46,837 nt of DNA from a phage. The position numbers were made by a program, and so were the translations under genes. This document shows, piece after piece, positions 1 to 35,886 of this stretch. Every line of letters starts with the position of its first letter. The stretch's first letter is position 1. The stretch is from sequence record PZ502447.1. One strand, written 5' to 3'. The notes under the pieces were generated by a model. The model worked only from the letters and a program-made list of their open reading frames with translations, made no database searches and was not told the origin of the DNA.

Positions 1-12
1 AGTGCTATCAAT

Positions 13-32
13 AAAAAACCCTCCGAAGAGGG
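13..32 (-). terminator. intrinsic terminator after major tail protein gene
   Basis: Minus-strand hairpin CCCUC-UUCG-GAGGG (19-32) followed by a U6 run (A-run 13-18 on plus strand), directly 3' of the ORF stop at 40-42. Confidence 0.6.
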
Positions 33-39
33 TTTATAT

Positions 40-717
40 TTATGCCAGTTCAGAAGCTACAGAACTCAACCTACCACGGATAGATACCGCGATGGATACC
101 GTTTCGATTTCGTTAACACCAATGCTTGGGGTGTCGTTGAAAGCGATAGTGCCAGACTGGAGACGCATCTCGCTAGCTCGAGGTACGAACAGACGAATAG
201 CAACAACAGTACCAGCTTCGTCATAGTTACGCAGAATCGGATATACCGGGTTGGTGTATTCGTGCGCAAACGTGTAGGTGTTGGTTACCGCAGACTTATA
301 AGTTGGAATCTGCTGCTCACGATCATCAGATAAACACTGGAAGTTAACGAACTGCTGTTCGCCGCCATCAGTGGATACGTCCTGAACACAAGGAACTTCA
401 AACCAAGTAAGAATCTTAACAACTTCACCAGTTAAGCCAGCTGGGAACTTAGTGGTGTTGGAGGTGTCAATACCTTCAACAGTTACGGTTGAACCAGATA
501 CCTCGGTAACGCGAACTTGCTTATCAGCCAGCAGGGTCGAAGCTGAGCTGGTAAATAGCAGGTAATCACCGCGTGCAATATCAGCAACGCTGGACAAAGT
601 TAAAACAGGAGTAACAGCATTGGAAATTGCAGTTACGTCGATAGCAGCTCCCCTAGTGCCTTCTACGAAGACCTGAGTGCCGTTTGATAAATGAGCAATA
701 ATACACCTCCAAATCAA
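40..717 (-). CDS. major tail protein (lambda V-like, assigned by position)
   Basis: 225 aa ORF immediately upstream (wrapping across the window ends) of the G/GT chaperone pair and tape measure gene; followed by a strong terminator. No diagnostic motif recognised. Confidence 0.5.
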   Translation of the reverse strand: MIWRCIIAHLSNGTQVFVEGTRGAAIDVTAISNAVTPVLTLSSVADIARGDYLLFTSSASTLLADKQVRVTEVSGSTVTVEGIDTSNTTKFPAGLTGEVVKILTWFEVPCVQDVSTDGGEQQFVNFQCLSDDREQQIPTYKSAVTNTYTFAHEYTNPVYPILRNYDEAGTVVAIRLFVPRASEMRLQSGTIAFNDTPSIGVNEIETVSIAVSIRGRLSSVASELA

Positions 718-721
718 TGAC

Positions 722-1204
722 TTAAGATACGTGCCTTTCTCGGCTTGCGTGATTTATGTGATAACCAAGTGATACCTCAGCAACAATTCTTGCTTCGCAT
801 GCGGATATGAAACTCTTATAGTGACCAAGACTAATTTTCTTGCCATTATCTGATATCATCGCATGCCAAAGGTTATCACGATTATTGTAGTTTACACCAT
901 TAACGCCTGGGAATGAACGTTTTCTAGTGCCTTGATTCCTTCTATTTTCAGTTGCAGTAACACACCTTAAATTCTCAATGCGATTATCACTTCGATTTCC
1001 GTTTAAGTGATCAATTTGCATGCCTTCAGGAATATCTCCATTATGCATCGTCCAAACAATCCTGTGGATATACATCTTACCAGTCTTTGATACGTAAGTC
1101 TTTACGTATCCGTTACTAGAACCATAACCAGCAGGATTGCCTTTTCCTTTTTTAAAGATTTGACCATCACGATAATCGTAAAGAGAATTCAAGAACTCTT
1201 TCAT
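722..1204 (-). CDS. HNH homing endonuclease (AP2-HNH type)
   Basis: HNH core IDHLNGNRSDNRIENLR; start moved to ATG MKEFL with SD AAGG because the ORF-track start overlaps the upstream gene. AT-rich relative to flanking structural genes. Confidence 0.8.
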   Translation of the reverse strand: MKEFLNSLYDYRDGQIFKKGKGNPAGYGSSNGYVKTYVSKTGKMYIHRIVWTMHNGDIPEGMQIDHLNGNRSDNRIENLRCVTATENRRNQGTRKRSFPGVNGVNYNNRDNLWHAMISDNGKKISLGHYKSFISACEARIVAEVSLGYHINHASRERHVS

Positions 1205-1214
1205 TTGCAACCTT

Positions 1215-1613
1215 TTAGTCAAGACGAACATAGAAACGAACTGGAATAAACCAGCCAGATTTTGACTTCACGACTGGGTGAACTACTCCGCCCTTATAAA
1301 TGTAGCCTGTGTCAAGCATTGTACCATCAAGCATTGATTCTGCCAATTGATTCGCTAATCTCCTTGCGCCATCAACACCATCACCTGGCGAGAAAAAGAC
1401 AGATACCTGAACCATGCCAACATAGTACTTACACTTACGACTTAAGCTGTAGGTTACGGTATCTGCCTCTGTGTAATCGTATTTCAGCCACATACCACCA
1501 TTATTGGGAGGAGAGAAGGCTACGTTTTCATAGGAAATTGGATACCTGACTGGAAACGTTTTAACCAAATCAGTCACAAACCTCCTTGCTGCTAAGGATA
1601 GCTCATACTGCAT
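1215..1613 (-). CDS. tail terminator / tail completion protein (by position)
   Basis: 132 aa ORF between neck proteins and major tail gene; start overlaps the stop of the upstream gene. Confidence 0.4.
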   Translation of the reverse strand: MQYELSLAARRFVTDLVKTFPVRYPISYENVAFSPPNNGGMWLKYDYTEADTVTYSLSRKCKYYVGMVQVSVFFSPGDGVDGARRLANQLAESMLDGTMLDTGYIYKGGVVHPVVKSKSGWFIPVRFYVRLD

Positions 1614-2059
1614 TATCTTTTACTCCTTGCTTCGGCAACTGCCTCTTCGAAGTATCTTCCTAACCTGATATTCACAACGCCAAGGACACCTGCTGGAGCT
1701 TGTCGTGACGCTCCATACTCAAGGTCAGAGGCGTAATCAAGCCTGTTAGTTATGTAGATAACCTTTGTCGCTGGTGAATTAGCCACAGCTCGAGCTTGCC
1801 TTGCCAGATACCTTTTTGTATCTCCACCTGTTTTGTCGTAATCATTCAGAGACTGGGCGGCTGGGGAGTTCGCTGTAATCTGCCAGTTAGCCTTAAACCT
1901 ACCAGTATCAACAGGCGATAAATCAACGATGGCGTTAGCAGCCTTAATTACAGTGCCAGAAACAATATCAGAGAAGTTATCATCAGCTCTATCAATCCAA
2001 TCAGCAATACTATTCGTAAATGTAGCCAACCCACCAATATTTCTAGCCATAGGTAGCAA
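1613..2059 (-). CDS. neck / tail completion protein (HK97 gp10-like, by position and size)
   Basis: 148 aa ORF in the head-tail joining block, translationally coupled to neighbours. Confidence 0.4.
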   Translation of the reverse strand: MLPMARNIGGLATFTNSIADWIDRADDNFSDIVSGTVIKAANAIVDLSPVDTGRFKANWQITANSPAAQSLNDYDKTGGDTKRYLARQARAVANSPATKVIYITNRLDYASDLEYGASRQAPAGVLGVVNIRLGRYFEEAVAEARSKR

Positions 2060-2426
2060 CCCTCCTTAGAATTGGTCTGTAAGCCACTATAGTTCCTGTT
2101 GGTTTGACTGGCCTCGGGTCGACTACAGTGTAAGTTTCATCGTCAACTATAATCCTGTAGCCCTGCAAGATTGGGACTTCAGAAGTGAAAATTCCACGCT
2201 TGTCACCAAACTGGATATATTCGCCATCAATATCTCTGGTTTTAATCTCCCTCACCAGCCCCTTGATTAATGCAGTGCCGCCAGCTACAGGAACCTCAAC
2301 GCCGTCAACAATTTCGACACCACCTTTACCAGTATTCATCGTGAATGTACCATCGCCATCACTAAAGATATTGATGCCCGTGCGCATTAATGATTCTACT
2401 TGGGAGTAATTCATTGGCAACCGCAC
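2043..2426 (-). CDS. head closure / head-tail joining protein (by position)
   Basis: 127 aa ORF in the connector block downstream of the major capsid gene. Confidence 0.4.
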   Translation of the reverse strand: MRLPMNYSQVESLMRTGINIFSDGDGTFTMNTGKGGVEIVDGVEVPVAGGTALIKGLVREIKTRDIDGEYIQFGDKRGIFTSEVPILQGYRIIVDDETYTVVDPRPVKPTGTIVAYRPILRRVATYG

Positions 2427-2821
2427 TCACGCCCAGCGGACGTAATCAAGCCAAATCCGCCGCCTTTCTTGCGCAGGAGATTCCAGTAAAGTCGGCCCCA
2501 CGGCGTAGCTGTCAATGATGATTGAGTTTGCGAGGTGGATTCATAGCTGATAGAAAATTCACCGCTCAGGGAGTAACTTGCCACCTTCTTGCCATAATCA
2601 TCCAGCGACTCATTCTGCTTAAGCGCGCCATCAAGAAAGGCAATGTGCAGAGTGTATAGCGACAGCGCTTTATAAGCATCATCACCAAACTTACCGGTGC
2701 AGATGTATAGCTTAGCTAACTCAAGCCATACGTCCAGCGTTTCATCTGGAATATTCTTAAGAGCAGGAACCAGCGACTTCATAAAGGCTAATGCTTGTTC
2801 GTTCATAAAACCTCCATACAA
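2411..2821 (-). CDS. head-tail adaptor protein (by position)
   Basis: 136 aa ORF, first connector-sized gene after the capsid gene. Confidence 0.4.
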   Translation of the reverse strand: MYGGFMNEQALAFMKSLVPALKNIPDETLDVWLELAKLYICTGKFGDDAYKALSLYTLHIAFLDGALKQNESLDDYGKKVASYSLSGEFSISYESTSQTQSSLTATPWGRLYWNLLRKKGGGFGLITSAGRECGCQ

Positions 2822-8347: not shown

Positions 8348-9913
8348 GATGCCAGCGAGGCGCATCATCCTCGATTTAGGGTCTTCTGCAATGTTCAGTA
8401 CCAGGTTGACAGCCATTGTCAAACAGTCTATCTGGTCATCGTGAACATGTGAATCATCTGCCGTGAATGCCGCAATCTCCGTTAGCAAGCCATTAAGCCA
8501 AGTAGCAGACTCCGGAAGGATTACGTTACCAGCTTTAATCTGCGGCAATGCACTCATTACGCGAGTCAGCTTATCGTTATCCGGAACGTACGGCTCGATA
8601 GGCGTTCGCATAACCCTTCCGGCTGATTGAATCAGGCCAATACCAGAGGCTTTCTTCTCGATGATGATTTTACGAAGGATGCCATCTATCTGATTGGATG
8701 CCCTAGCCATCTTCTCGAAATCCAATAACTCAGCCTCTAGCTCAGGCGCTTCCCATTTACCACGGCGCTGGTCCAACAGGTAAATTTTACCATCCTTATA
8801 GCCCCAGAGTTGCAATACGCTAAAGTCACTGTATGACTTTGTTGTCATTGCGGTATCAAGTGTCATGAATCTGTAGTCGTATTTAGCTGGCGGTCGCAGG
8901 GTGTCACTAATGCGCTGGAACCAGTCTACGTTAATCAGGTTGCCGCCTAGGGCTATTGGCTGTTGAAGGTATTGACTAAGAAACGTGTATGGGTCGGCGT
9001 CCTTCATTGCCATCAAGTCGTGAACTGATTCCTTTGCTGGGAAGTAGCTGTAATACTTCACGCCGTCACGCTCAATGTATTCGCTTGATAGAACGTCATC
9101 AATGAATTGCTGCTTAATCCAGTCAGGAAGAGTGTCGACATAATCCTCAGTAACGAGTGCTGGAACCTTAACTACGTCAAACTTAATCCCCATACCGCCG
9201 GATTCCATAAAATTGCTGGTATCAAGAACGTGCAACCTCTGCTGAACGGCGATAATTGGTGTTTCATGCCCCTTAACGGAACTTGCTCTACGTGAGCGAA
9301 TCGTGTTCTTTAGAAGCATATTAACAGCCTCCCTCCTTACATTACTAAGCGCATCATCTGGCTTCAGCGGGTCATCAAGCATTATGCATCCACTGTAATC
9401 ATCGGTCATGTAACCACCACGTGAACCAGTCACCTGGCCAGCCATTGCCTTAGATATCGATTCAAACCTCACCTTTCCATCTTCATCTAGAACCTGAATT
9501 TCGTCATCCCTACATGTGCCAAACTTGCAAGGCCATAACTCCTGAAACTCCTTTGACTTAATGAGGTCGCGTACTCTCTTTGAGTTTCGCTTAACCAATG
9601 AGTCAGAGAACGACAAACTAAGGTTTCTAACCTTCTTAATCTTGATCATGCTATATACAGGGAAATGTATGCTAAAGAGTTCGGTTTTGGCTGATCCAGG
9701 AGCTACGTTTATGATGGTATCCTTTCTCTTACCCTCAAGAATCTCATCTATGACACGACAAAGGTATTTAGCATGCCAATTCATTTTGAATCTCTCGCCT
9801 TGCGTTATCTGAAAGAAGCACCGCAAGAACCCTTCGAAACTATGCTCAGCGATTGCCTTTATAGCCATCTTTTCAGCGTGAGTTAGTTCATCCCAGACTA
9901 TTAATTCACTCAT
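8342..9913 (-). CDS. terL: terminase large subunit
   Basis: 523 aa; Walker A-like VAPGSAKT near the N-terminus; ATG start 2 nt after the upstream HNH stop; followed by the portal block. Confidence 0.85.
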   Translation of the reverse strand: MSELIVWDELTHAEKMAIKAIAEHSFEGFLRCFFQITQGERFKMNWHAKYLCRVIDEILEGKRKDTIINVAPGSAKTELFSIHFPVYSMIKIKKVRNLSLSFSDSLVKRNSKRVRDLIKSKEFQELWPCKFGTCRDDEIQVLDEDGKVRFESISKAMAGQVTGSRGGYMTDDYSGCIMLDDPLKPDDALSNVRREAVNMLLKNTIRSRRASSVKGHETPIIAVQQRLHVLDTSNFMESGGMGIKFDVVKVPALVTEDYVDTLPDWIKQQFIDDVLSSEYIERDGVKYYSYFPAKESVHDLMAMKDADPYTFLSQYLQQPIALGGNLINVDWFQRISDTLRPPAKYDYRFMTLDTAMTTKSYSDFSVLQLWGYKDGKIYLLDQRRGKWEAPELEAELLDFEKMARASNQIDGILRKIIIEKKASGIGLIQSAGRVMRTPIEPYVPDNDKLTRVMSALPQIKAGNVILPESATWLNGLLTEIAAFTADDSHVHDDQIDCLTMAVNLVLNIAEDPKSRMMRLAGIK

Positions 9914-9915
9914 TG

Positions 9916-10422
9916 TTACGCTCTCGTATTTGGGTAGCCTTTATTTTCAGAGCCATGATTTTCATGATATCCGTTCAATTTGTCATACTGTGACCTTGCC
10001 AATGCAGCCTCCTCTATAGTGTCCTTGTAGCATATGAAGACTGTTTTACCAAACTCCATAGCCTGAACAAGCCATCTATTCTCTCTTTTGCACCAGCTTA
10101 CACCGTTTATTCCGCTTTTATTTCTTGATGATAGTGATCTGTTATTTGAGTTCTCTTTATTGCTTACTAACCTTAGGTTCTCTATTCTATTGTCACTTCT
10201 ATTTTGGTTTATGTGATCTATGTACATGCCTTTAGGGATTGATCCATTGTGCATCTCCCACACCACCCTGTGACACCTGTATGCTTTTTGTCTATACTTT
10301 AGTATCACATAGCCAAATTTATCAACTCTTCCAGCCACCTCTCCAACCTTTGATACATTTGCTACTTTTACCTTTCTTATTAAAAGCCCGTCTCTATATT
10401 CAAAAATATCATGCCAATTCAT
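9916..10422 (-). CDS. HNH homing endonuclease (AP2-HNH type)
   Basis: 168 aa; HNH core IDHINQNRSDNRIENLR; N-terminus MNWHDIFEYRDG shared with the HNH at 28006; strongly AT-rich; inserted between the terminase subunit genes. Confidence 0.85.
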   Translation of the reverse strand: MNWHDIFEYRDGLLIRKVKVANVSKVGEVAGRVDKFGYVILKYRQKAYRCHRVVWEMHNGSIPKGMYIDHINQNRSDNRIENLRLVSNKENSNNRSLSSRNKSGINGVSWCKRENRWLVQAMEFGKTVFICYKDTIEEAALARSQYDKLNGYHENHGSENKGYPNTRA

Positions 10423-11267: not shown

Positions 11268-11456
11268 TTACTTTCGCTCACGAACGTAAGCTACTAGGAA
11301 TTTGTGGTAATCCGGGTCGGCACCAGACATTACCTTAACTTTCGCTACTGCTTCCTCTGAGGACTTAGCAGTAACCGACGCGATAAATTCTTGAGTGCAA
11401 CTTTTGCAACTACGACCCATTAATCGGATTGAAAGCTTAACATCCCAGAGCTGCAT
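11268..11456 (-). CDS. hypothetical protein
   Basis: 62 aa ORF overlapping the stop of the upstream gene; Cys-containing. Confidence 0.4.
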   Translation of the reverse strand: MQLWDVKLSIRLMGRSCKSCTQEFIASVTAKSSEEAVAKVKVMSGADPDYHKFLVAYVRERK

Positions 11457-11680: not shown

Positions 11681-11756
11681 TGGTGTTCCGCACTGGACTC
11701 GAACCAGTAACTAAGACTTAGGAGGTCTTTGCGTTATCCTGTTACGCCAGCAGAAC
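11681..11756 (-). tRNA. tRNA-Arg (anticodon CCU)
   Basis: 76 nt on minus strand folds as a cloverleaf: acceptor GUUCUGC/GCGGAAC (one G-U), U8, D-stem GCGU/ACGC with GG in the D-loop, anticodon stem AAGAC/GUCUU, loop CUCCUAA (U33, CCU, A37), T-arm ACUGG-UUCGAGU-CCAGU, discriminator A, encoded CCA. Confidence 0.8.
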
Positions 11757-12145: not shown

Positions 12146-12348
12146 AACTCCTCAGTTATAAGCATCTTGCCACAATCTTTGCACTCGTAGAACGCACATG
12201 TTTCACCTATTGATACAATTGGTTTTGTTGACTCGTGGTATGCAGAGCTTATCGCCTTAATGTCAAAATCGTTAATGATTGATGTGAACACGTAAATGTA
12301 ATGATGTTTGTGATTATTGTCGTTATCACTCATAAAGGCTATTCCCAT
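12142..12348 (-). CDS. hypothetical protein
   Basis: 68 aa ORF, Cys-rich C-terminus (CAFYECKDCGK); its first 8 codons and RBS are duplicated at 12454-12485. Confidence 0.45.
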   Translation of the reverse strand: MGIAFMSDNDNNHKHHYIYVFTSIINDFDIKAISSAYHESTKPIVSIGETCAFYECKDCGKMLITEEF

Positions 12349-12357
12349 TCTCTAACC

Positions 12358-12473
12358 TAATTCAATGTAAATATGAAGAAAATCATCCCAATTGCCGTAG
12401 CCATAGCCAATCCGATGGCGATCAGAGTTAGTACTAAATCAATGATAATATCACTCATAAAGGCTATTCCCAT
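12358..12473 (-). CDS. small hydrophobic protein (38 aa, predicted membrane)
   Basis: Hand-translated ORF MGIAFMSDIIIDLVLTLIAIGLAMATAIGMIFFIFTLN, below the ORF-track size cutoff; shares its start module with 12142..12348. Confidence 0.35.
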
Positions 12474-12687
12474 TCTCATCATGACCCACACGCCCTCGAC
12501 GATAGCCCGCTATCCACACAAACTTATCACGTGCGATTATCGTGGATACCGGCCCCCATATCTGAGTGATAAGCGCCGCAACAACCTTATCATCTTTCTT
12601 TTTTGCGCCCAATTTGCCGTATTCGTCATTCAGCTTGTCAGCCTGTCGCTTAACTGCGTTAAAGTATGCGTCGTCTAACCCGAACAT
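12451..12687 (-). CDS. hypothetical protein
   Basis: 78 aa ORF, ATG with GAGAGG SD located in a conserved leader downstream of a promoter module. Confidence 0.5.
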   Translation of the reverse strand: MFGLDDAYFNAVKRQADKLNDEYGKLGAKKKDDKVVAALITQIWGPVSTIIARDKFVWIAGYRRGRVGHDENGNSLYE

Positions 12688-12743
12688 TTTCTAACCTCTC
12701 GCTGTTTGATATATAAATTATATGGCATCCATGCCTTTGGTGT

Positions 12744-15362: not shown

Positions 15363-15884
15363 CTATTTAGTCTCCTTAATCATTTCTTGGTATGCGTTAA
15401 TCATTGATACTGCACCATTAAGTTCATCACCTTCAAGACCAGCGACGCTTGGTGATAGTTTTAACAATCGAGCCTTGAACCTTTCAATGGTAGCCGCCTC
15501 CTTCTCTTGCTCTGCTTTGCTTCTTGAGCCGGATTTTACAGCGCCAGGAACCAGGCTAAGTGATGCGCAGTATGTCTCACTCTCGCCCTCAAAGTCGGTA
15601 AAACTAAGTGAGAACCTTGAGCGCACGTCAGCCGCCTTAATCTCAGGCATTCGGCTTACGGTGTTTGAAACGTATGACGCTTTTAGTTTTGGCATGTGGT
15701 ATTCACCACCAGGTAGAACCTCCTCACCACTTAGCGATACGAACGTCTCACGACTCATGCCGAAGTATTGACGAGCAATCATGGTCACAGGGACTGTGCA
15801 CACTTTGTCTTCTGACTTGAGCGCCTGACTCGCCATGTATCGAATGATTTCACCCAAACTTACTGCTTCTTTATGTTCTGACAT
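15363..15884 (-). CDS. hypothetical protein (first leftward early gene)
   Basis: 173 aa ORF, ATG with AGGAG SD, first gene transcribed leftward from the large control region. Confidence 0.55.
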   Translation of the reverse strand: MSEHKEAVSLGEIIRYMASQALKSEDKVCTVPVTMIARQYFGMSRETFVSLSGEEVLPGGEYHMPKLKASYVSNTVSRMPEIKAADVRSRFSLSFTDFEGESETYCASLSLVPGAVKSGSRSKAEQEKEAATIERFKARLLKLSPSVAGLEGDELNGAVSMINAYQEMIKETK

Positions 15885-15974
15885 ATTCGTTACTCCTGAT
15901 TGGTTGCTCTTCGTTAAGATGAAACCATGGTATCATGAATATACGCGTTATCAAGTGTTATGTTGTGTTTATAT

Positions 15975-16030
15975 CTGCATTGGTTACGCTTTTTGACCTC
16001 TCAGCCCAGCTATAGCTGGTGTAATTACCC
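15975..16030. repeat. duplicated control-region block 1 (copy A) with perfect palindrome CCAGCTATAGCTGG
   Basis: ATTGGTTACGCTTTTTGAC...GCCCAGCTATAGCTGG; near-identical block at 35223-35280. The 14 bp perfect palindrome is at 16006-16019. Confidence 0.6.
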
Positions 16031-16145
16031 TGTGTAAGATTTTACGCGGATTCGCCGGGGGTATGCATATGTATCTATATAGATAAAATTAGTAGTTTTC
16101 ATAGAAAAACTATCGACCCATCCATACGACCAATCTACACCATAT

Positions 16146-16212
16146 ACATACATATATATAATAATAATAATAATATAGTAAAAGGTTGATATATATAGAT
16201 ATTATTATGTAA
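16146..16212. repeat. duplicated control-region block 2 (copy A) with (TAA)n microsatellite
   Basis: ATATATATAATAATAATAATA...AGTAAAAGGTTGATATATATAGATATT..ATGTAAC; near-identical block at 35404-35468, at the same roughly 120 bp spacing from block 1. Confidence 0.6.
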
Positions 16213-16483
16213 CCATTGCGTAATCTCGCGTGGTAGGCGTGTATGATTCTTCGGAAGCGCACCTCATATACACACCATAACTTCGATAACGTGTATATCC
16301 AAATTGGCTCAGCAAGAATCAAAATCAACTTGTATGGTAGTTCATCCACCATTCATTCACCCCACATCAATCATTGCAAATTCTGCAACAATCAAAAACA
16401 TCATTGCATTCCATGCAATATTGCTATATGTGCAATAATCATGATAATCATTGCAATAGCTGCAACAATAGATAAATCCAACG

Positions 16484-17150: not shown

Positions 17151-17314
17151 TGCTTTTACCATCTGAGATAAACTATTTCGATCTGGAAATAATTAGTGCT
17201 TACAGCGGAAAGGGTTGGCCTTGCGGGGACTGGTTTAACGAGGACCTGCTTGAGTCTCACGAGATTATGTTGAAGGCAATTGAGAAGGCCAGAAAAAATA
17301 GCACTAATTGCTAA
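17150..17314 (+). CDS. hypothetical small protein (54 aa)
   Basis: Hand-translated ORF MLLPSEINYFDLEIISAYSGKGWPCGDWFNEDLLESHEIMLKAIEKARKNSTNC; its stop lies inside the promoter motif. Confidence 0.35.
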   Translation: MLLPSEINYFDLEIISAYSGKGWPCGDWFNEDLLESHEIMLKAIEKARKNSTNC

Positions 17315-18150: not shown

Positions 18151-19734
18151 ATGTTTGATTTCAACGAAGATAAACTATCTGTTGAGCAGGTTATGGCAAT
18201 CGCTGCCAATGACAACCTACCACCGCTTCGCGTGGCTATTAATGCCAATGGCTATCGACAGTCTCAATCGTTCTGGAAAGCACCTGTCGAGATTGATACA
18301 GGTAATGATAAGTATCCAGTAATCTCACTCGGTAATGATATTGATGTTGTTGGTAAGCTATCGGCTAATATCGCTCGCTCGGTTCAGTTCCCTGAGTCGT
18401 CAGCTTACATGCACTTTCTTGGTTGTGTTTCTGCTGCAATGCTTGGGCGTTTTACTGTCGAGTATCATGGAACCCAACAGCCAACATCTTTGTACGTGGT
18501 AACAAGTCAGCCGCCTTCAACTGGTAAATCAGCCATTAACTCGCTATCAATCGCGCCGATGATTGCTGAGACTGAGCGGTTGAATGAAGTACGTAAACGT
18601 GATCGAAAAAAGATTATGGCTAAACTGTCCGCTCTGGCTAAAGAGATGAAGCAGGAGAAATCACCTTCTGAAATGGCTTCACTTTTTGAGGAGAAGGATG
18701 ATTTAGAGGAGAAGCTCGAGAAGCTATGCGATATAGTATTCCCGGTTTCCGATACTACTCCGGAAGGTCTTGCGCGAATCAACAATCGCCAGGGTAATTT
18801 TGCGGTAATCTCTGATGAGGCTACTAGCGTCAACTCACTGTTAGGCATGACTTACGGTGATGGCTCGAAGAAAACGAACAGCGAGCTCGTGCTGAAAGCA
18901 TGGGATGCAGGTAATGTGTCAATTGCCCGTGCGAACGCAGAAAATAACATGAGCTTTGTGGCTATGGGATGCATCTCCGTAATTGCTCAGGATGAAACAA
19001 TCAATGCCATTATGAATGCTGGTGCGCGTGGTATTGGTGTATCTGAGCGTTTCCTTCTGGTGCGCGAAAAGTCATTCCTTGGCGACCGCGTATTTGTTGA
19101 TGCTAATGGTGATTCAACATACGAGGCTATTGATGGCGGCCTGAAAGCGGACTACTTCCGTCTTGTTCATGAGATTATGAATGAAGTAGAGGTTAAGCTA
19201 ACAGTAAGCGCATCATCAATGCGTTACCTTAACCGAGCACGTCAGGAGATGGAGCCTCATCTTGGTGATGGTGGCAAGTATTCTCACACAATGTTGCGCG
19301 GTGCTCTTGGTAAGTTTGATAAGCAAGCAATCCGCATCGCTTCCGTACTTCACGTTATTCGTAACTGGTCCTCACAAACTGGCTCTAGCCCGCAGAAGTC
19401 CAGAGAGATTGAACTGGAGACAATGCAGGAGGCAGTTATGATTTTCAACGAGCTAAGCAAGACGTATTTGTCATCAGCTAGTGCTGCTGGTCATGCTGGT
19501 GACAATGCCGAGATGAACAAGCTGGTTGATATCCTGATTAAGCAGGGCAAGAATGGTAAAGGTGTTGTTGGTGTTCGCTCGTTGTATGAGGCTGCACGCA
19601 AGGTTAAACCTTTTGAAGCTCAGGCTGGAATTATGACTCGCATTAAGGACCACTTGATTCCTATGCTTGATGAGAAAAACTACACATGCCTGATTGGTGA
19701 TAAAATTTACATTAATCCACGATTGCTGGGGTAA
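18151..19734 (+). CDS. P-loop NTPase, possibly replication-associated
   Basis: 527 aa; Walker A-like PPSTGKSA and Walker B-like FAVISDE; largest gene of the rightward early operon. Exact family not recognised. Confidence 0.45.
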   Translation: MFDFNEDKLSVEQVMAIAANDNLPPLRVAINANGYRQSQSFWKAPVEIDTGNDKYPVISLGNDIDVVGKLSANIARSVQFPESSAYMHFLGCVSAAMLGRFTVEYHGTQQPTSLYVVTSQPPSTGKSAINSLSIAPMIAETERLNEVRKRDRKKIMAKLSALAKEMKQEKSPSEMASLFEEKDDLEEKLEKLCDIVFPVSDTTPEGLARINNRQGNFAVISDEATSVNSLLGMTYGDGSKKTNSELVLKAWDAGNVSIARANAENNMSFVAMGCISVIAQDETINAIMNAGARGIGVSERFLLVREKSFLGDRVFVDANGDSTYEAIDGGLKADYFRLVHEIMNEVEVKLTVSASSMRYLNRARQEMEPHLGDGGKYSHTMLRGALGKFDKQAIRIASVLHVIRNWSSQTGSSPQKSREIELETMQEAVMIFNELSKTYLSSASAAGHAGDNAEMNKLVDILIKQGKNGKGVVGVRSLYEAARKVKPFEAQAGIMTRIKDHLIPMLDEKNYTCLIGDKIYINPRLLG

Positions 19735-25389: not shown

Positions 25390-27384
25390 TCAATCCTCCA
25401 TCGTAAATGATTTGTTGGCGATAATATCTTGCGACTTCTGATTCTTGCGGTGCGTAATCCTTAGCGGCGCACGGAAAAGATGTGCATTTGTCATAATCAT
25501 TTTAGCATTACGCAATCTGCCAATCCTAAAAGCCTCAGTACTGTTCTCGATGTGAGTTGAGCAAAACGCCTTCCATTTGACAGAACAAACACGATGGTCT
25601 GACTCCGGGAAGAATGTTTCATAAGCTCGGAACTTATCTCCACTATGAGCCATTACCTCATATGAAGCAACGATCCCTGACTGGTTTTTTGTCAACCCAA
25701 TCTTGAAGTCATAAACTCTCAACCAGTCCCCTTTCCGATACATTTTTCCAGATAGCTTTGCATTTGGGTCTATCAGCATCTCTCCGCAGCAGCGGCAGTT
25801 CTTTGCTGCAACGTCATTTTTCTCTCCGCAACCTTTCTTAATGATAACTTTCGTCTGCGGGTCCTCAATATCTTCGCAAAGACGGAACTGAAAAAAATGC
25901 TCGCATCGTTTACCGTCAATCACATTATTACAGCGCCGTGCGAAAGGAGAATTCTCATAAGAACATGCTGGGCAAATTCTTGGTTCATCACCCCCTTTCC
26001 TGGATGACTTAAACTTCTGGTCCTGAACCTCTTCTATAATTGGGTCGAAGTAGAGTTCTGCCATATCGTCAAGCGTCCCGGCAAAATCAAGAACAACGTG
26101 GTCCTCTTTTATCATTCCAGCTTCTTTGTGCTTCTTCTTAAGAATTCGCATACCGCGACCAAGCAACTGAATGAGCAACGTTATGCTGCCAACCTTCCTT
26201 AGGATAATGCTTGTATCCCACGGCGGCACGTTGACGCCCGTTGTGAGGCAACCAATCTGAAATATGAATTTATATTCTCCATTTGCCGCCTTATCAAGTA
26301 TCTCTCTGCGTTTTTTTTCACCAGTGGAGTCAGTAACTATCGCCCACGTCACACCATCTGGTAGCGCTGCCGCCGCCTCTTCACAATGCTGCTTTCCGGC
26401 GCAGGTTACCAATGCCGCATTCCTTGTTTCCATGAATTTAGCAGCAAAGCCCATTATCTTTTGGGTCATGGTCTGGTTTTCATGAATCTTCGCAGCCATA
26501 GCGTCCATTTCTTTTTTACTGAAGTCTTTAACTCCATCACTTCCATCTGGAGCAAACTCGCTAAGGTCATAACCCAAATCACCAACCTCGCCGTAAACGG
26601 TCGGAACCACGAACCCCAAGTCAACCAGGTAACTGGTTGGTACTTGCATTACCGTTTTACGCCAGAAACCACGAACATTCGGATTGCTAACTACAATGTG
26701 GTCATTGTTCCGGTAAGGGCTACCAGTTAAACCGAAGATGCGTAGCTCTCGACCATACTTCTCTTTGCAGCGTCTCTTCATCTCAGTAATGATTAGCGTG
26801 TACTGCGCACGACCAGTTCCGAGCAATCCGGTATTCACTCCATCCTTGAAAACCATCTCACCCTTCTTCGTGCTCATCTGCTCGAATGTTTCCTCGTTCT
26901 CTTCAGCTTCTACGATATCCATATGGTCAACCATATGACATTCATCTATCGCAATAACGGCAGGAACATAGTCACCAAGGCCCTTAAACAAGCCGTTAGC
27001 AGCTGTGCCCTCACTAGCCACTATGGTTGGGTAGTAAACTGATTTAACGTTAAGGCCAGCGCAATAGACGCTATTACGGATGCCGAAGTTACGAAGCTCT
27101 TCAGCGTTCTGGCTGATAATTTCTGACTGGCGAGAAAGCACCATGTAAGGAAGCCCAAGCTGTTCCATTCGTTTCCCAATCATGGCGAGTATAATTGTCT
27201 TACCAGCAGACACCGACAGGTCTGCGATGAATGGTGCTTCATACTTGCCAATGGCCTTGCCAATAGCGTCAAATGTCACGCACTGGAATTCGTAAGGCGT
27301 TATGTCTCCAAACTGGTAATCTTTCTGAATCTGTTTAATTTTCTCTTTATCAAAGTTGGCTACTAAGCGCTCTACTGGAAGCAT
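25390..27384 (-). CDS. ATP-dependent SF2 helicase (DExH box) with C-terminal Cys-rich zinc-ribbon region
   Basis: 664 aa; Walker A SVSAGKT, DExH box AIDECH, C-terminal CPAC...C..C and C.CCG clusters. Confidence 0.75.
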   Translation of the reverse strand: MLPVERLVANFDKEKIKQIQKDYQFGDITPYEFQCVTFDAIGKAIGKYEAPFIADLSVSAGKTIILAMIGKRMEQLGLPYMVLSRQSEIISQNAEELRNFGIRNSVYCAGLNVKSVYYPTIVASEGTAANGLFKGLGDYVPAVIAIDECHMVDHMDIVEAEENEETFEQMSTKKGEMVFKDGVNTGLLGTGRAQYTLIITEMKRRCKEKYGRELRIFGLTGSPYRNNDHIVVSNPNVRGFWRKTVMQVPTSYLVDLGFVVPTVYGEVGDLGYDLSEFAPDGSDGVKDFSKKEMDAMAAKIHENQTMTQKIMGFAAKFMETRNAALVTCAGKQHCEEAAAALPDGVTWAIVTDSTGEKKRREILDKAANGEYKFIFQIGCLTTGVNVPPWDTSIILRKVGSITLLIQLLGRGMRILKKKHKEAGMIKEDHVVLDFAGTLDDMAELYFDPIIEEVQDQKFKSSRKGGDEPRICPACSYENSPFARRCNNVIDGKRCEHFFQFRLCEDIEDPQTKVIIKKGCGEKNDVAAKNCRCCGEMLIDPNAKLSGKMYRKGDWLRVYDFKIGLTKNQSGIVASYEVMAHSGDKFRAYETFFPESDHRVCSVKWKAFCSTHIENSTEAFRIGRLRNAKMIMTNAHLFRAPLRITHRKNQKSQDIIANKSFTMED

Positions 27385-27473
27385 TTTAAATATCCCGACA
27401 GTTTGTTAGTTCGTTGCATTGCTGTATAATAACAATTATCGAACCTATTGTTTAACAAAAAATGCTATTGAGG
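27385..27473 (-). promoter_or_regulatory. variant promoter module in divergent region
   Basis: Minus-strand AATAGCATTTTTTGTTAAAC, about 21 nt, TATTATAC, then leader to helicase ATG at 27384; the plus-strand gene at 27481 starts 8 nt beyond the motif. Confidence 0.4.
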
Positions 27474-27480
27474 TAATGAG

Positions 27481-27954
27481 ATGTGTGAAATTGACAAGCG
27501 AACTATCAACGGCAATAACGGAACCATCCGCACGCAAGACAAGAAACAGCGCAAACGACCGTCAGGCTACTACGTATTGAAAGATGAAGTAAAGGCTGGG
27601 CTACGAGCTCGTCTGGAGATGGTTCTTGATTTCTACGGCACGAAGGCCAATATCGCCAAGCAGTTAAATGTATCTCACCAGACTGTAGAGCAATGGTTTG
27701 ATCGCGGGATGATTTCGGCTCGAGGTGCCCAGAGGGCTCACAATGCATACAAGCGAAATAAGGAAGGCTTTAGAGCTACGTTCTGCCGACCAGACCTGCA
27801 ATTCGACGGAAACGGTAAGCCATTAACGCTTAGATGCAAGAAACGCCATATGCTGCGGGTTGTTACAGAAGCTGAACTAGCAACAAAGCCACCATGTCGA
27901 CCATGGCGCAAGAATAAGATTGCCAACGAAGCAGCACGAAAAGCTAAAGATTAA
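27481..27954 (+). CDS. HTH DNA-binding protein (putative transcriptional regulator)
   Basis: 157 aa, ATG with GAGGTAA SD; helix-turn-helix-like segment TKANIAKQLNVSHQTVEQWFDRG; basic N- and C-termini. Confidence 0.5.
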   Translation: MCEIDKRTINGNNGTIRTQDKKQRKRPSGYYVLKDEVKAGLRARLEMVLDFYGTKANIAKQLNVSHQTVEQWFDRGMISARGAQRAHNAYKRNKEGFRATFCRPDLQFDGNGKPLTLRCKKRHMLRVVTEAELATKPPCRPWRKNKIANEAARKAKD

Positions 27955-28005: not shown

Positions 28006-28485
28006 ATGAACTGGCATGATTATTTTTACTATGTAGATGGCAAATTGCATTGGAAGATTAGCACTGCAAGACGTGTTAAGGTTGGCGATGAGTGCAACTC
28101 ACTATCTACATCTGGCTATTACAAAGTGTCTGTTAATGGCTTTAGGACTTATGTACATAGAGTTGTGTGGGAGATGTTTAATGGAGAACTTCAAAATGGC
28201 GACTACATTGATCATATAAACCATAACAAATTAGATAACAGAATAGAAAACCTAAGAGTAACAACAAATCAAGGTAACTCAAGAAATTGCAAGCTTAGCG
28301 TTTTATCAACAACTGGTTATTGTGGAGTAGCAAAGCTAAATCACGGAAAATTTAAGGCTCACATCAAGGTTGACGGTAAGCAGCTACACCTTGGGAACTT
28401 CGATACTCCAGAGCAGGCGTATAAAGTAAGAATTGAAGCAGAGAGAAAATGCAACTTTCACGAAAATCACGGGTTAAGCAAATGA
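28006..28485 (+). CDS. HNH homing endonuclease (AP2-HNH type)
   Basis: 159 aa; IDHINHNKLDNRIENLR HNH core; N-terminus MNWHDYFYYVDGKLHWK paralogous to the HNH at 9916; inserted directly upstream of primase with an ATGA overlap. Confidence 0.85.
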   Translation: MNWHDYFYYVDGKLHWKISTARRVKVGDECNSLSTSGYYKVSVNGFRTYVHRVVWEMFNGELQNGDYIDHINHNKLDNRIENLRVTTNQGNSRNCKLSVLSTTGYCGVAKLNHGKFKAHIKVDGKQLHLGNFDTPEQAYKVRIEAERKCNFHENHGLSK

Positions 28486-29405
28486 ATTACGATAAGAATG
28501 AAGTTATACCTAAGATGGCCGGATTGTGGAAATCATTTTATGCAAAGGAACTTGGTTGGAATGATAGACACCTAAGTAAGAAGCACGGACCATGCCCATA
28601 CTGCTTTGGCACTGACAGATTCAGATTTACCGACGAAATAGGCAGTGAAAAAGGGAATGGCGCGGCAGTTTGTTCGAAATGCGGAAGTGACTCCGGTATA
28701 GGATGGGTCATGAAGTGCACTGGATCGTCCTTCGCAGATTCAGTAAATTTGCTTGGTGACTGGCTGAACTTAACACCAATTGAGGTTATAGTTAAAGCAA
28801 ACAAGCAAGCATCAAGAACCCAGCTCTACAAAATGGGCGCCCAGATTGACCACGAAAGATGTTTAGAGATTATGGAAAGAACAGAAAGAGTAGAATCAAC
28901 TCCACTCAGTATATACGAGGGTATCTATAGCGAATTTGGTTTTGATGTTGGCAGGACGAAATCAGGCGAACTAATACACGCAGTACCGTGCTTTATGGCT
29001 TATAGTGACGGCATATCAGATGATATGTGCAATGTAATGTTTATCAATGAAGATGGAGATGTTAGCTATGCTGCAAAAGATTATACTCGCCAGTCTGTTT
29101 CTATTATTGGCACCTTTAAAGATGATGAGTACGCTTATCTGGTCGATAATTGGATTGATGGTGTTCGCGTTCATCTTGCTACTGGAAATCGCTGCGTGCT
29201 TGTTTGCCACTCCAGCTACAACATGGAAATGGTTGCTTATGCGCTTATGAACTACAAGTTACGCGTCGCTTGTACTCGCAACTCTTTTGATTTACTTGCC
29301 GTTGCTGACGATCGCAATCTTGATATTGTAATTCCAAATGATGGTAATTTTTTCAAGTCAGGCATAAGAAAGAGAATATACAAGGCAAACGAATTACTAG
29401 ACTAA
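28482..29405 (+). CDS. DNA primase (zinc-finger type)
   Basis: CxxC...CxxC zinc-binding motif (CPYCFG...CSKCGS) near the N-terminus. Start placed at ATG MNYDKNEV overlapping the HNH stop; the ORF track starts it 33 nt earlier. Confidence 0.55.
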   Translation: MNYDKNEVIPKMAGLWKSFYAKELGWNDRHLSKKHGPCPYCFGTDRFRFTDEIGSEKGNGAAVCSKCGSDSGIGWVMKCTGSSFADSVNLLGDWLNLTPIEVIVKANKQASRTQLYKMGAQIDHERCLEIMERTERVESTPLSIYEGIYSEFGFDVGRTKSGELIHAVPCFMAYSDGISDDMCNVMFINEDGDVSYAAKDYTRQSVSIIGTFKDDEYAYLVDNWIDGVRVHLATGNRCVLVCHSSYNMEMVAYALMNYKLRVACTRNSFDLLAVADDRNLDIVIPNDGNFFKSGIRKRIYKANELLD

Positions 29406-34705: not shown

Positions 34706-34900
34706 TCAATCCTTAATTTTAACAATCTTAATAGCTTTCAAATCTTCTTCAGTGAAGTATCCTGTCAGCAACTCCTTGGCCTCTTCCTTTGTCTCGAATT
34801 GGTCGGCTTCAGATTTGTTGGTAGTGTATCCGGCTGGGCCACCAAAGTAGCAATCGCCGAACAGTGCGTTGTTTTTCTCTTTAATTATGAAGTATGGCAT
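34706..34900 (-). CDS. hypothetical protein
   Basis: 64 aa ORF upstream of the exonuclease gene. Confidence 0.4.
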   Translation of the reverse strand: MPYFIIKEKNNALFGDCYFGGPAGYTTNKSEADQFETKEEAKELLTGYFTEEDLKAIKIVKIKD

Positions 34901-34904
34901 GATT

Positions 34905-35090
34905 TTATCCCTTAATGACTTTGATGTGTTCTGATGTTGTCTTTTCTATCCTTGCGCCAGTTTTCTCCCATTGTTTACCGTATGATAATTCGCAAAATCT
35001 AAAAGCCATGTCATACGTAAGGAATATAGCGATAGGTGAATACGTTGGTAGTATTACTGTATGCGCTTTCAATTTATCAGGCATTTTCAT
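34905..35090 (-). CDS. hypothetical protein
   Basis: 61 aa ORF, first gene leftward from control region B; upstream CATCATT plus leader GCATCGAAAGAAAAC. Confidence 0.45.
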   Translation of the reverse strand: MKMPDKLKAHTVILPTYSPIAIFLTYDMAFRFCELSYGKQWEKTGARIEKTTSEHIKVIKG

Positions 35091-35222
35091 TACTCTATCT
35101 CTCTACGGTTGTTTTCTTTCGATGCGTTAATGATGCCGCACGCAAGACACACAGTCCAATTGGTATCACCGATTAATTAATCAAGTATACGCGTATAAAT
35201 CCGTAACTACGTGTAGACATTT

Positions 35223-35280
35223 CTATTGGTTACGTTTTTCACTGCCTTAGCCCAGCTATAGCTCAATGTAAATGGTGCGT
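35223..35280. repeat. duplicated control-region block 1 (copy B)
   Basis: ATTGGTTACGTTTTTCAC...GCCCAGCTATAGCT, matching 15975-16030 (the palindrome is partly degenerate here). Confidence 0.6.
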
Positions 35281-35403
35281 ATATCGTGTATACCGATCTT
35301 GGCGGATGGTGCATAGGTATGGGTGCCGCGCAATACTGTATAAAATCACATGATATAAAAATTATAACCGGAACACTCAAGAACAGTAGTTACATGATAT
35401 ACA

Positions 35404-35468
35404 CAGTAATATATATAATAATAATAATAAGAGTAAAAGGTTGATATATATAGATATTTTAATGTAAC
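35404..35468. repeat. duplicated control-region block 2 (copy B) with (TAA)n microsatellite
   Basis: ATATATAATAATAATAATAAGAGTAAAAGGTTGATATATATAGATATTTTAATGTAAC, matching 16146-16212. Confidence 0.6.
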
Positions 35469-35554
35469 TATGGCGTATCAAGGCGTAACTAGGCGTATAC
35501 GATTTCCCGCGGATGCATATGGTATACATCGAGTTACATCGGTTACGTGTAACC

Positions 35555-35640
35555 AATAGCACGAATAGCTAAAGACAAAGATTATAGATGATGTATGATT
35601 ACTCCATCGAAACGAAATGCTCATTATAAGGAACAAGAAA
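35555..35640 (+). promoter_or_regulatory. conserved promoter module for rightward lipoprotein operon
   Basis: AATAGCACGAATAGCTAAAGAC, 22 nt, TATGAT, then leader CCATCGAAACGAAA, then AAGGAA SD and ATG at 35641. Confidence 0.55.
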
Positions 35641-35886
35641 ATGACTAACTTAATCAAACTTTCAATCATCGCCGCAGCAGCAATCATGATGGTAGGTTGT
35701 TCTTCTGCTCCGCGACCAGACGGATGGTGTGCAACGCAAGCAAACGGCGTGTGCGTGGCTAAATGGGAAAATGGTGTGGTTGTACCGTCTGGTGAAGTTG
35801 ATGTGCGATACGCTGGTATTGAGAGCAAGGCTGGCGGCGGTTACGGTGGCTCTGTTGCTGACCATGGGTCTAAGGAGTGGAAATAA
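35641..35886 (+). CDS. small lipoprotein, candidate Cor-like superinfection exclusion protein
   Basis: 81 aa from ATG MTNLIK (AAGGAA SD); signal peptide ending in lipobox-like MVGC; Gly-rich mature part; located beside the J/receptor-recognition region as cor genes are in related phages. Confidence 0.5.

Follow-up and report, generated by a model that had tools for sequence, protein, structure and literature searches.

Paired AT-rich, repeat-bearing intergenic elements as candidate replication origins in an Rtp-like phage of the T1 family

Sequence record PZ502447.1 (46,837 nucleotides, analysed at full length and referred to here as the window) covers the whole, or nearly the whole, genome of a T1-like siphophage, an Rtp-like phage within the Drexlerviridae, with 93% identity to phage ES and about 78% to Rtp in BLAST comparisons with phage records. 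A non-coding element, block B, lies inside the 550-nt gap that separates a leftward operon from a rightward cor-like lipoprotein gene, and a paralogous element, block A, is found elsewhere in the same genome. On balance, block B is probably a cis-acting combination of iterons and an unwinding element and most likely serves as one of two paralogous replication origins, block A being the other. An earlier, sequence-only reading of this genome had put the region forward as an origin candidate; the comparative evidence described below strengthens that proposal, while the origin function itself is something we infer.

The core of block B has an A+T content of 84.8%, compared to 56.1% for the genome (Table 1). 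The AT-rich microsatellite seen earlier at this position is resolved by Tandem Repeats Finder (TRF) as (ATA)5.3, which is equivalent to (TAA)5, and the duplicated blocks reported next to it are equally real: about 370 nt at 35183-35555 are paralogous to approximately 15935-16300, with matches between 16136-16222 and 35391-35477 (87 nt, 76%) and between 15965-16017 and 35211-35263 (53 nt, 74%). To the right of the core, GGCGTA occurs at 35472, 35482 and 35492 with the exact 10-bp spacing that the sequence-only reading had described, and TRF calls a period-10 array at 35472-35498. The hexamer is not over-represented overall (12 copies on the plus strand of the 46.8-kb window); the spaced pattern GCGTA-N5-GCGTA-N5-GCGTA matches the window once, and none of 100 dinucleotide-shuffled sequences contained it, not even when one mismatch was tolerated.

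The GGCGTA triplet is part of a larger repeat system, in which GTTAC/GTAAC units and a second 10-bp array (35525-35546) matter at least equally. GTTAC/GTAAC is present eight times in block B against 0.91 expected (P = 5e-6). Three of these units are located left of the AT core, at 35203 (minus), 35229 (plus) and 35389 (plus), and five right of it, at 35464 (minus), 35485 (minus), 35533 (plus), 35542 (plus) and 35549 (minus), where the three GCGTA units come in addition. The first right-arm array contains four GTAWH units, three of which coincide with the GGCGTA triplet, and the GTTAC units of the second array, called by TRF with period 10 at the coordinates just given, are oriented opposite to those of the first. 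The left arm also holds GTTACG and CCCAGCTATAGC, and its 12-mer GTATATCGTGTA recurs in element B of phage T1. The core consensus of the integration host factor (IHF) is matched five times in the window, with two of these matches at the centres of cores A and B; the site is shared by Rtp, EC3a and JeanPiccard and is not found in T1, TLS, Rogue1 and KP36.

Two further claims of the sequence-only reading held in part. The inverted repeat said to bracket the region, CTATTGGTTAC (35223-35233) with GTAACCAATAG (35549-35559), is a perfect 11-bp repeat in the window, but it is found only in the window phage and its closest relative ES. Other relatives keep only GTTACG of the left arm, and the right arm overlaps the promoter-associated 21-nt repeat of the T1 family, its AATAG being the start of that repeat. 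Likewise, the GGTTAC inverted repeat GGTTACGTGTAACC is locally palindromic at 35541-35554, but its right half varies among relatives. Because both the CTATTGGTTAC arm and this right half vary, the bracketing inverted repeat is lineage-specific.

Conservation was assessed by aligning copy B from 11 Rtp-like phages of several genera, with overall identities of 76-96%. In all 11, neither the three GCGTA units nor their 10-bp phase shows any change, whereas the bases between the units vary. This combination marks selection on the phased motif instead of on a block of sequence, and the triplet is under strong selection. The condition named for refuting the sequence-only reading, a phasing kept in no related genome, is thereby not borne out. 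Within the segment GTAGTTACATGATATACACAGTAATATATATAATAATAATAATAAGAGTAAAAGGTTGATATATATAGATATTTTAATGTAAC, departures are limited to scattered substitutions, each in a single phage, and to one inserted nucleotide (in IME542), and GTATACATCGAGTTACATCGGTTACG.GTA in the second right-arm array is nearly invariant. The 66-nt AT core, (TAA)5 included, is 100% identical in the 11 phages, against 76-80% identity of the flanking DNA. The number of TAA units is constant in the 11 B copies, and the AT core is the longest exact stretch common to the window genome, Rtp, EC3a, JeanPiccard and ES. The repeats of copy A had been described as more degenerate, in agreement with its greater variability across relatives; copy B is the better conserved of the two. 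In eight phages, copy A retains the AT core, (ATA)4-6 and three GCGT units at 10- and 9-bp spacings, which in the window lie at 16218, 16228 and 16237.

This conservation bears on several other explanations of the block. That it is a small protein-coding gene, a mobile insertion resembling a miniature inverted-repeat transposable element (MITE) or a chance repeat is hardly credible. The annotations of Rtp rtp46 and EC3a gp44 extend into the block, which would favour a gene; however, the 11 orthologues do not agree in the frame or the length of their open frames, and nucleotide invariance covers the would-be wobble positions. A small open reading frame (ORF) in the block was rejected on the ground that stop-free frames are not conserved in this set, and the rtp46 and gp44 extensions are probably annotation over-calls. 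The 8-bp imperfect terminal inverted repeats TACGCGT / ACGTGTA recall a mobile insertion, but a MITE-like origin is unlikely because no target-site duplication is present and the same two positions are occupied in five lineages. Chance is opposed by the shuffles, none of which reproduced the triplet.

A structured non-coding RNA, or a nut/put-like antitermination leader duplicated at the head of two early operons, is very improbable as well. Such an RNA would fit the existence of two paralogous copies whose orientation is fixed relative to the downstream operons, and copy A contains the hairpin-forming palindrome CCAGCTATAGCTGG, with a different hairpin at the same place in IME542. The folding z-scores of -0.42 (plus strand) and -0.70 (minus strand), on the other hand, give no signal on either strand. 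RNAalifold yields no signal either, its covariation term being just -2.45 kcal/mol with compensatory changes in 5 of 104 pairs, and at the gathering threshold Rfam finds only a tRNA in the window. Furthermore, the most conserved part of the block is 85% A+T, and an internal promoter is unsupported.

The thermodynamic properties of the core are shared far beyond the Rtp-like phages. A nearest-neighbour scan of duplex stability, with windows of 60 and 100 bp, covered nine genomes: five Braunvirinae (the window, Rtp, ES, EC3a and JeanPiccard), T1 (Tunavirinae), TLS (Tempevirinae), Rogue1 (Rogunavirinae) and KP36 (Webervirus). In 9 of 9 genomes, and hence in five lineages, the two least stable segments are the equivalents of cores A and B, with z-scores of 4.2-6.0; the third-best segment does not exceed 3.8 in eight of the genomes, and in KP36 it has a value of 4.8. 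Core B of the window has its least stable 60-bp segment at 35407 (z 5.2) and its least stable 100-bp segment at 35371 (z 4.7). Core B is always located just upstream of recE, and core A always in a gap between divergent early operons, about 200 bp from the left genome end of the T1 record. In KP36 the recE module is inverted and relocated, and the element has moved along, such that it is the reverse complement of KP36 element A, with which it shares about 50 nt of near-identical core sequence. Trinucleotide repeats likewise occur within the equivalent cores of KP36, Rogue1 and TLS.

Each lineage carries its own short words, which are nearly confined to the two loci. These are GCGTATA (5 inside, 3 outside) and ATGTAAC in the window, CCGCGGA in Rtp (6 inside, 0 outside), TGTAACA in T1 (6 inside, 0 outside), where GGCGTAATTT also occurs twice next to core A, and ATCTTAC in KP36 (13 inside, 6 outside). 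ACGCGTA is confined to the blocks in Rogue1 (4 versus 0) and Rtp (3 versus 0). The restriction of such private repeats to two loci points, as far as sequence comparison can tell, to a protein that binds DNA site-specifically and evolves in step with these repeats. The block motifs differ in this respect from the 21-nt T1-family repeat, which is found at many promoters and is not present in the block proper (35183-35554). KP36 has two 10-bp-phased triplets; the occurrence of phased triplets beyond the window genome makes them a recurrent design and not a peculiarity of one genome. Block relatives outside phages were sought in 72,556 plasmids and 5,426 E. coli genomes, with no match. A search for the triplet pattern across IMG/VR was uninformative, as it matched more than 120 unrelated contigs.

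In the main rival to the origin reading, the repeats are operators for a phage regulator. Block B would then be a transcriptional control hub only, in which the repeats switch divergent early promoters at both loci; the regulator could be, for example, the small helix-turn-helix (HTH) protein encoded at 27481-27954, with the recE operon and cor as targets at B and the rtp1-like and helicase operons at A, and the flexible AT core would allow bending or looping with IHF as architectural factor. We regard this as possible, if unlikely. Both copies lie exactly at divergent promoter regions, their orientation to the downstream operon is conserved (the KP36 element moved with recE), the KP36 arrays carry the 16-bp palindrome GTAAGATTCATCTTAC, typical of dimeric operators, the IHF-consensus site is central in the core, and the HTH gene is conserved next to the primase gene. 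However, the flanking promoters lie outside the block, with the AT core about 230 bp from the leftward one, and across lineages the cores share no sigma-70 promoter in a suitable position. A third divergent region, the promoter of the HTH gene itself (27384-27481), is without the motifs and thus holds no autoregulatory copy of them. Operators would also leave unexplained the stability minima in nine genomes and the conserved trinucleotide repeat, and in a distant phage locus (L139, see below) the corresponding element is located downstream of the helicase gene. A promoter in the core was considered separately and rejected, with just 9-10 of 12 consensus matches at a position that is not conserved across lineages. 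The origin and hub readings can both hold, since promoters are frequently associated with the origins of phages.

The reading of block B as an origin draws further on the replication proteins of the phage. The operon that starts at element A includes a gene for a DUF3987 protein. Modelling gives this protein an MCM-like AAA+ fold and a winged helix at the C-terminus, similar to the Rep initiators of staphylococcal pathogenicity islands (SaPIs). Sequence searches of the PDB with the helicase, the primase, the HTH protein and the DUF7174 protein returned nothing significant, and only the fold comparison was informative. DUF3987 proteins have been classed as superfamily 6 helicases that partner a primase in the replication of mobile elements (PMC11724360). 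SaPI Reps are self-loading helicase-initiators, of which the C-terminal winged helix reads penta- or hexanucleotide iterons flanking a central AT-rich region (PMC9371898).

The link between such helicases and AT-rich elements was followed into distant phages through the genomic context of four helicase homologues with 36-39% identity (L136, L137, L139 and L140). In 4 of 4, a long non-coding gap beside the helicase-primase genes holds an AT core with a trinucleotide repeat and private short repeats. The word CGCCCAC/GTGGGCG lies on both sides of the L137 core, and 7 of its 7 occurrences in the 19.6-kb locus fall within the gap. The L139 element is found directly downstream of the helicase gene, which is the position of SaPI origins, and the pairing of HTH and primase genes recurs in the same locus. 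As a separate observation, the submotif AAGGGTTTA is common to L136, L137 and Rogue1 and resembles AAAGGTTGATA in the window.

Table 1. Coordinates of the two blocks, their parts, the surrounding genes and the elements of distant phages (positions in the window, or in the respective locus for L136-L140)
Feature	Position	Strand	Evidence or description
Block B, non-coding element between two divergent promoters	35183..35555	.	A-versus-B alignment; repeat families D4 and D9; 11-phage alignment
Palindrome TATACGCGTATA, left edge of block B	35186..35197	.	TACGCGT conserved; mirrored by ACGTGTA at right edge
Left-arm repeats GCGTATATC and GTGTATAC, 9-bp period	35277..35293	+	GTGTATATCGTGTATA invariant in 11 phages
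GTTACAT, inverted partner of ATGTAAC (35462-35468)	35389..35395	+	Pair brackets AT core; invariant in B copies
AT-rich core, candidate DNA-unwinding element	35396..35461	.	66 nt, 84.8% A+T; (TA)4, (TAA)5, TATATATAG
Trinucleotide repeat (ATA)5.3 = (TAA)5	35415..35430	.	TRF; copy number invariant in 11 B copies
IHF core consensus WATCAANNNNTTR, perfect match TATCAACCTTTTA	35434..35446	-	Centre of AT core
Right-arm array 1: ATGTAAC, GCGTATC, GCGTAAC, GCGTATA	35462..35499	+	GTAWH units at 35464, 35475, 35485, 35495
Right-arm array 2: GTATACATCGA, GTTACATCG, GTTACGTGTAACC	35524..35554	+	9-10-bp array, GTTAC units
Leftward operon left of gap	34905-35090, 34706-34900 (small genes)	-	Followed by recE, erf, ssb
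Leftward leader and putative promoter-like segment of small genes and recE-erf-ssb operon	35091..35175	-	Shared leader ATCGAAAG, GAGAGA ribosome-binding site, then ATG; family D7
Rightward promoter unit of cor-like gene	35555..35617	+	21-nt repeat AATAGCACGAATAGCTAAAGA, -10-like sequence, leader ATCGAAACGAAA; families D1, D5, I2-I4
cor-like lipoprotein gene	35641-35886	+	Pfam Phage_lipoprotein
Block A	15935..16300	.	AT core 16141-16206 (87.9% AT); (ATA)6 16158-16175; IHF-like site 16179-16191
DUF3987 protein, candidate origin-binding self-loading helicase	18151..19734	+	Operon starting at element A
SNF2-like helicase	25390-27384		
Small HTH protein, alternative candidate binder	27481..27954	+	Upstream of primase; weak Cro/MerR-like HTH matches
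DNA primase, Zn-ribbon of primase-helicase, partner of helicase	28449..29405	+	Pfam PF08273; PHROG 510
L136 (AAC)11, in core	9390-9425		Core flanked by CTTACA/TGTAAG, 10 of 21 copies in gap versus 0.55 expected
L137 (TAA)6, in core	2335-2352		Core also with (TA)7; stability minimum of locus, z 4.6-4.9
L139 (TAG)4, in core	11382-11394		Core flanked by ACCCCAG/CTGGGGT; stability minimum
L140 (TAA)9	1-27		With CTTAC repeats upstream of helicase

If block B is an origin, a phage DNA-binding protein would recognise GTAAC/GCGTA-type units, presented in 10-bp-phased arrays on one helix face and on both sides of the core. As binder, the winged helix at the C-terminus of the DUF3987 helicase, which is MCM-like, is the first candidate; the second is the small HTH protein, whose gene lies upstream of that of the primase. 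Binding would melt the TA/TAA-rich core, perhaps aided by IHF bending at the central TATCAACCTTTTA, after which the helicase could load itself, the phage primase would prime and the host polymerase would elongate.

One of the closest known counterparts of this arrangement is the SaPI Rep-type origin. A central AT-rich region is found in both, and the phage likewise encodes a primase and a helicase for which a C-terminal winged helix is predicted. In SaPIs, 6-12 short iterons of 5-6 nt flank the AT region, with at least two per side in opposite directions; the layout of block B (three GTTAC/GTAAC units on the left, five on the right) is compatible with this rule, with the true iteron word being ambiguous. 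The SaPI origin lies immediately downstream of rep, whereas here the helicase gene is about 2 kb (A) or 16 kb (B) away. Also unlike SaPIs are the two copies per genome, the E. coli host, the virulent phage as carrier and the conserved trinucleotide repeat in the core.

A precedent for two similar origins in a virulent siphophage is provided by oriL and oriR of SPP1 (PMC6316719). SPP1 is a pac-type phage whose two origins lie kilobases apart and combine direct repeats with an AT-rich unwinding element, similar to the situation described here (PMC6316719). One of them is located in an intergenic region with transcription signals, and an exonuclease, an annealing protein and an SSB protein are encoded nearby, as is also the case here. 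The sequences of the SPP1 origins and of blocks A and B show no similarity. SPP1 employs the origin-binding gp38, the loader gp39 and a DnaB-type helicase; the phage studied here has the MCM-like DUF3987 helicase and its own primase, and the proteins scanned, which represent part of the ORFs of the window, include neither a DnaB-type helicase nor a loader. A further comparison is offered by the satellite phage P4, in which ori and crr are two separated cis regions with short repeated octamers bound by the C-terminal winged-helix domain of alpha, a single polypeptide with a superfamily 3 helicase. In its annotation, the T1-family primase is likened to alpha proteins of the P4 type. The GTTCAC repeats of TLS resemble what we take to be the P4 repeat, TGTTCACC, which is a lead only.

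The proximity of the blocks to recombination and packaging functions allows for another role. Either block could be a programmed fork barrier or break site that starts recombination-dependent (sigma) replication, for which a proposal on SPP1 oriR is a parallel, or an accessory site for concatemer processing, coupled to recE-erf-ssb or to pac. In support, the recE-erf-ssb operon has copy B at its head without exception, some 200 bp separate copy A from the ATTGCA repeats among which the T1 and Rtp records set their position 1, and the SPP1 model includes an initiator-bound second origin that stalls forks. We nevertheless consider this role improbable, given that the same architecture is found beside helicase-primase genes where recE-like genes are several kb away, and that copy B is 19 kb from pac.

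A number of observations weigh against block B being an origin. The orientation of the element is fixed relative to the operon it heads, up to its inversion together with recE in KP36, and a fixed orientation is needed by a cis-regulatory element and not by an origin. Both copies fall between divergent promoters, a setting in which AT-rich DNA and sites for regulators would be expected in any case. In contrast to SaPIs, the gene of the candidate initiator stands apart from the elements, at the distances given above (about 2 kb for copy A, about 16 kb for copy B), and the helicase winged helix is a putative binder by fold analogy alone. The repeat units are only 5-7 bp long, and their number and orientation change from copy A to copy B as well as from one lineage to another; GTTAC/GTAAC units are far fewer in copy A than in copy B, and the A and B cores of TLS are barely similar. 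Dependence on the host initiator is not supported either: no perfect DnaA box (TTWTNCACA) is present within 260 bp of either core in eight genomes, and boxes with one mismatch are near expectation in 7 of the 8, the window having 6 versus 1.5 expected. A DnaA-dependent origin was accordingly rejected for lack of DnaA boxes. Initiation of replication at block B is plausible rather than proven.

With respect to what is known, no origin was identified in the genome papers of TLS and SU57 (PMC11447400, PMC7718038), and our literature search found no paper that maps the origin or the transcription start sites of a T1-like phage. The type of element, an origin for a self-loading helicase, is known; new would be its occurrence in a family where no origin is defined, and the duplication and the trinucleotide core are unusual.

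On its two sides, block B is flanked by transcription signals. The leftward promoter-like segment has its T1 equivalent in TTGACT-N16-TATAAT. The 61-aa ORF of the small gene at 34905-35090 (minus), which adjoins block B, is absent from EC3a and Rtp and has no Pfam or PHROG match. On the right, the known 21-nt T1-family repeat AATAGCACnnnTTGnTAAA at 35555-35575 directly abuts block B. The TLS genome paper gives the consensus aaATAGCACnnnTTGnTAAAA for this intergenic repeat of T1-like phages and leaves its function open; AATAGCACGAATAGCTAAAGA matches this consensus, is oriented with transcription and is positioned 86 nt upstream of the ATG at 35641, compared to a distance of about 76 nt from the start codon for the repeat in general. 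Units of about 65 nt, which combine the palindrome TAGCAnnnnnTGCTA, representing the 21-nt T1-family repeat, with a -10-like box and with ATCGAAACGAAA as leader, are located upstream of many genes, at 12699, 13835, 21483, 24911, 33673 and 46784 on the minus strand and at 17295, 18068, 29451 and 35555 on the plus strand.

Block A lies near a second repeat-rich region. Between it and the next 21-nt promoter repeat, CATTGCA, TGCAA and GCAAC repeats are dense at 16340-16480, and this cluster is very highly conserved in eight relatives. Position 1 of the Rtp record and the matching T1 segment at position 1 of its own record, which is the left end of the annotated terminal repeat (repeat_region 1..2800 of the T1 record), fall inside the cluster, which is for this reason probably the pac or terminase recognition region. 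Within it, AATCATGATAATCATTGCA (16433-16456) agrees at about 14 of 19 positions, by our own count, with GATAATGATAATCATTATC, which we take to be the E. coli Fur-box consensus; the likeness may be due to chance in an AT-rich repeat. On the other side, element A is adjoined by ORF 15363-15884 (minus), encoding the DUF7174 protein, for which the PDB holds no sequence match. At the equivalent position, as the first ORF after the element-A gap, T1 has ST77, TLS gp01, KP36 gp02 and Rogue1 gp03; Rogue1 gp03 alone is annotated as similar to rtp1, and the kinship of the others is by position only.

Other features of the window lie apart from the two blocks. A tRNA-Arg(CCT) gene at 11681-11756 (minus) is its sole Rfam or ARAGORN match. 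An inverted repeat of 127 nt, 72% complementary, connects 10146-10272 with 28156-28282, within ORFs 9916-10422 (minus) and 28006-28485 (plus); these ORFs are probably a pair of paralogous genes for HNH homing endonucleases. The small early-gene region contains TATCACTCATAAAGGCTATTCCCATTCTC as an exact direct repeat of 29 nt, at 12324-12352 and 12449-12477, 125 nt apart.

A wider generalisation is speculative and, in our estimation, rather unlikely as a whole. T1-like phages, and more widely phages with a DUF3987 helicase and primase, might share a previously undescribed origin design with a trinucleotide-repeat unwinding core and helically phased private iterons, which in the Drexlerviridae would be duplicated. 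Copy B, beside recE, would then fire theta replication, while copy A, beside pac, would serve either as another origin or as a fork barrier by which the switch to concatemer synthesis is set off, comparable to what has been proposed for SPP1. In such a design, the AAA+ helicase during loading, or an initiator, may read the triplet tract in a three-base register, for which the DnaA-trios of bacteria offer an analogy.

T1 is a founding Delbrück phage, and its relatives are common contaminants in laboratories and fermentations as well as candidates for therapy. A candidate pair of origins defined at the level of coordinates makes the origin question of the T1 family directly testable, and it puts the DUF3987 helicase forward as a candidate for a self-loading initiator, here in a virulent phage of E. 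coli. Furthermore, the presence of the same architecture in unrelated metagenomic phages suggests a simple rule for finding origins in many further phages, namely a genomic stability minimum with a triplet repeat and flanking private repeats. Such a rule would aid the design of minimal replicons or of countermeasures that target replication.

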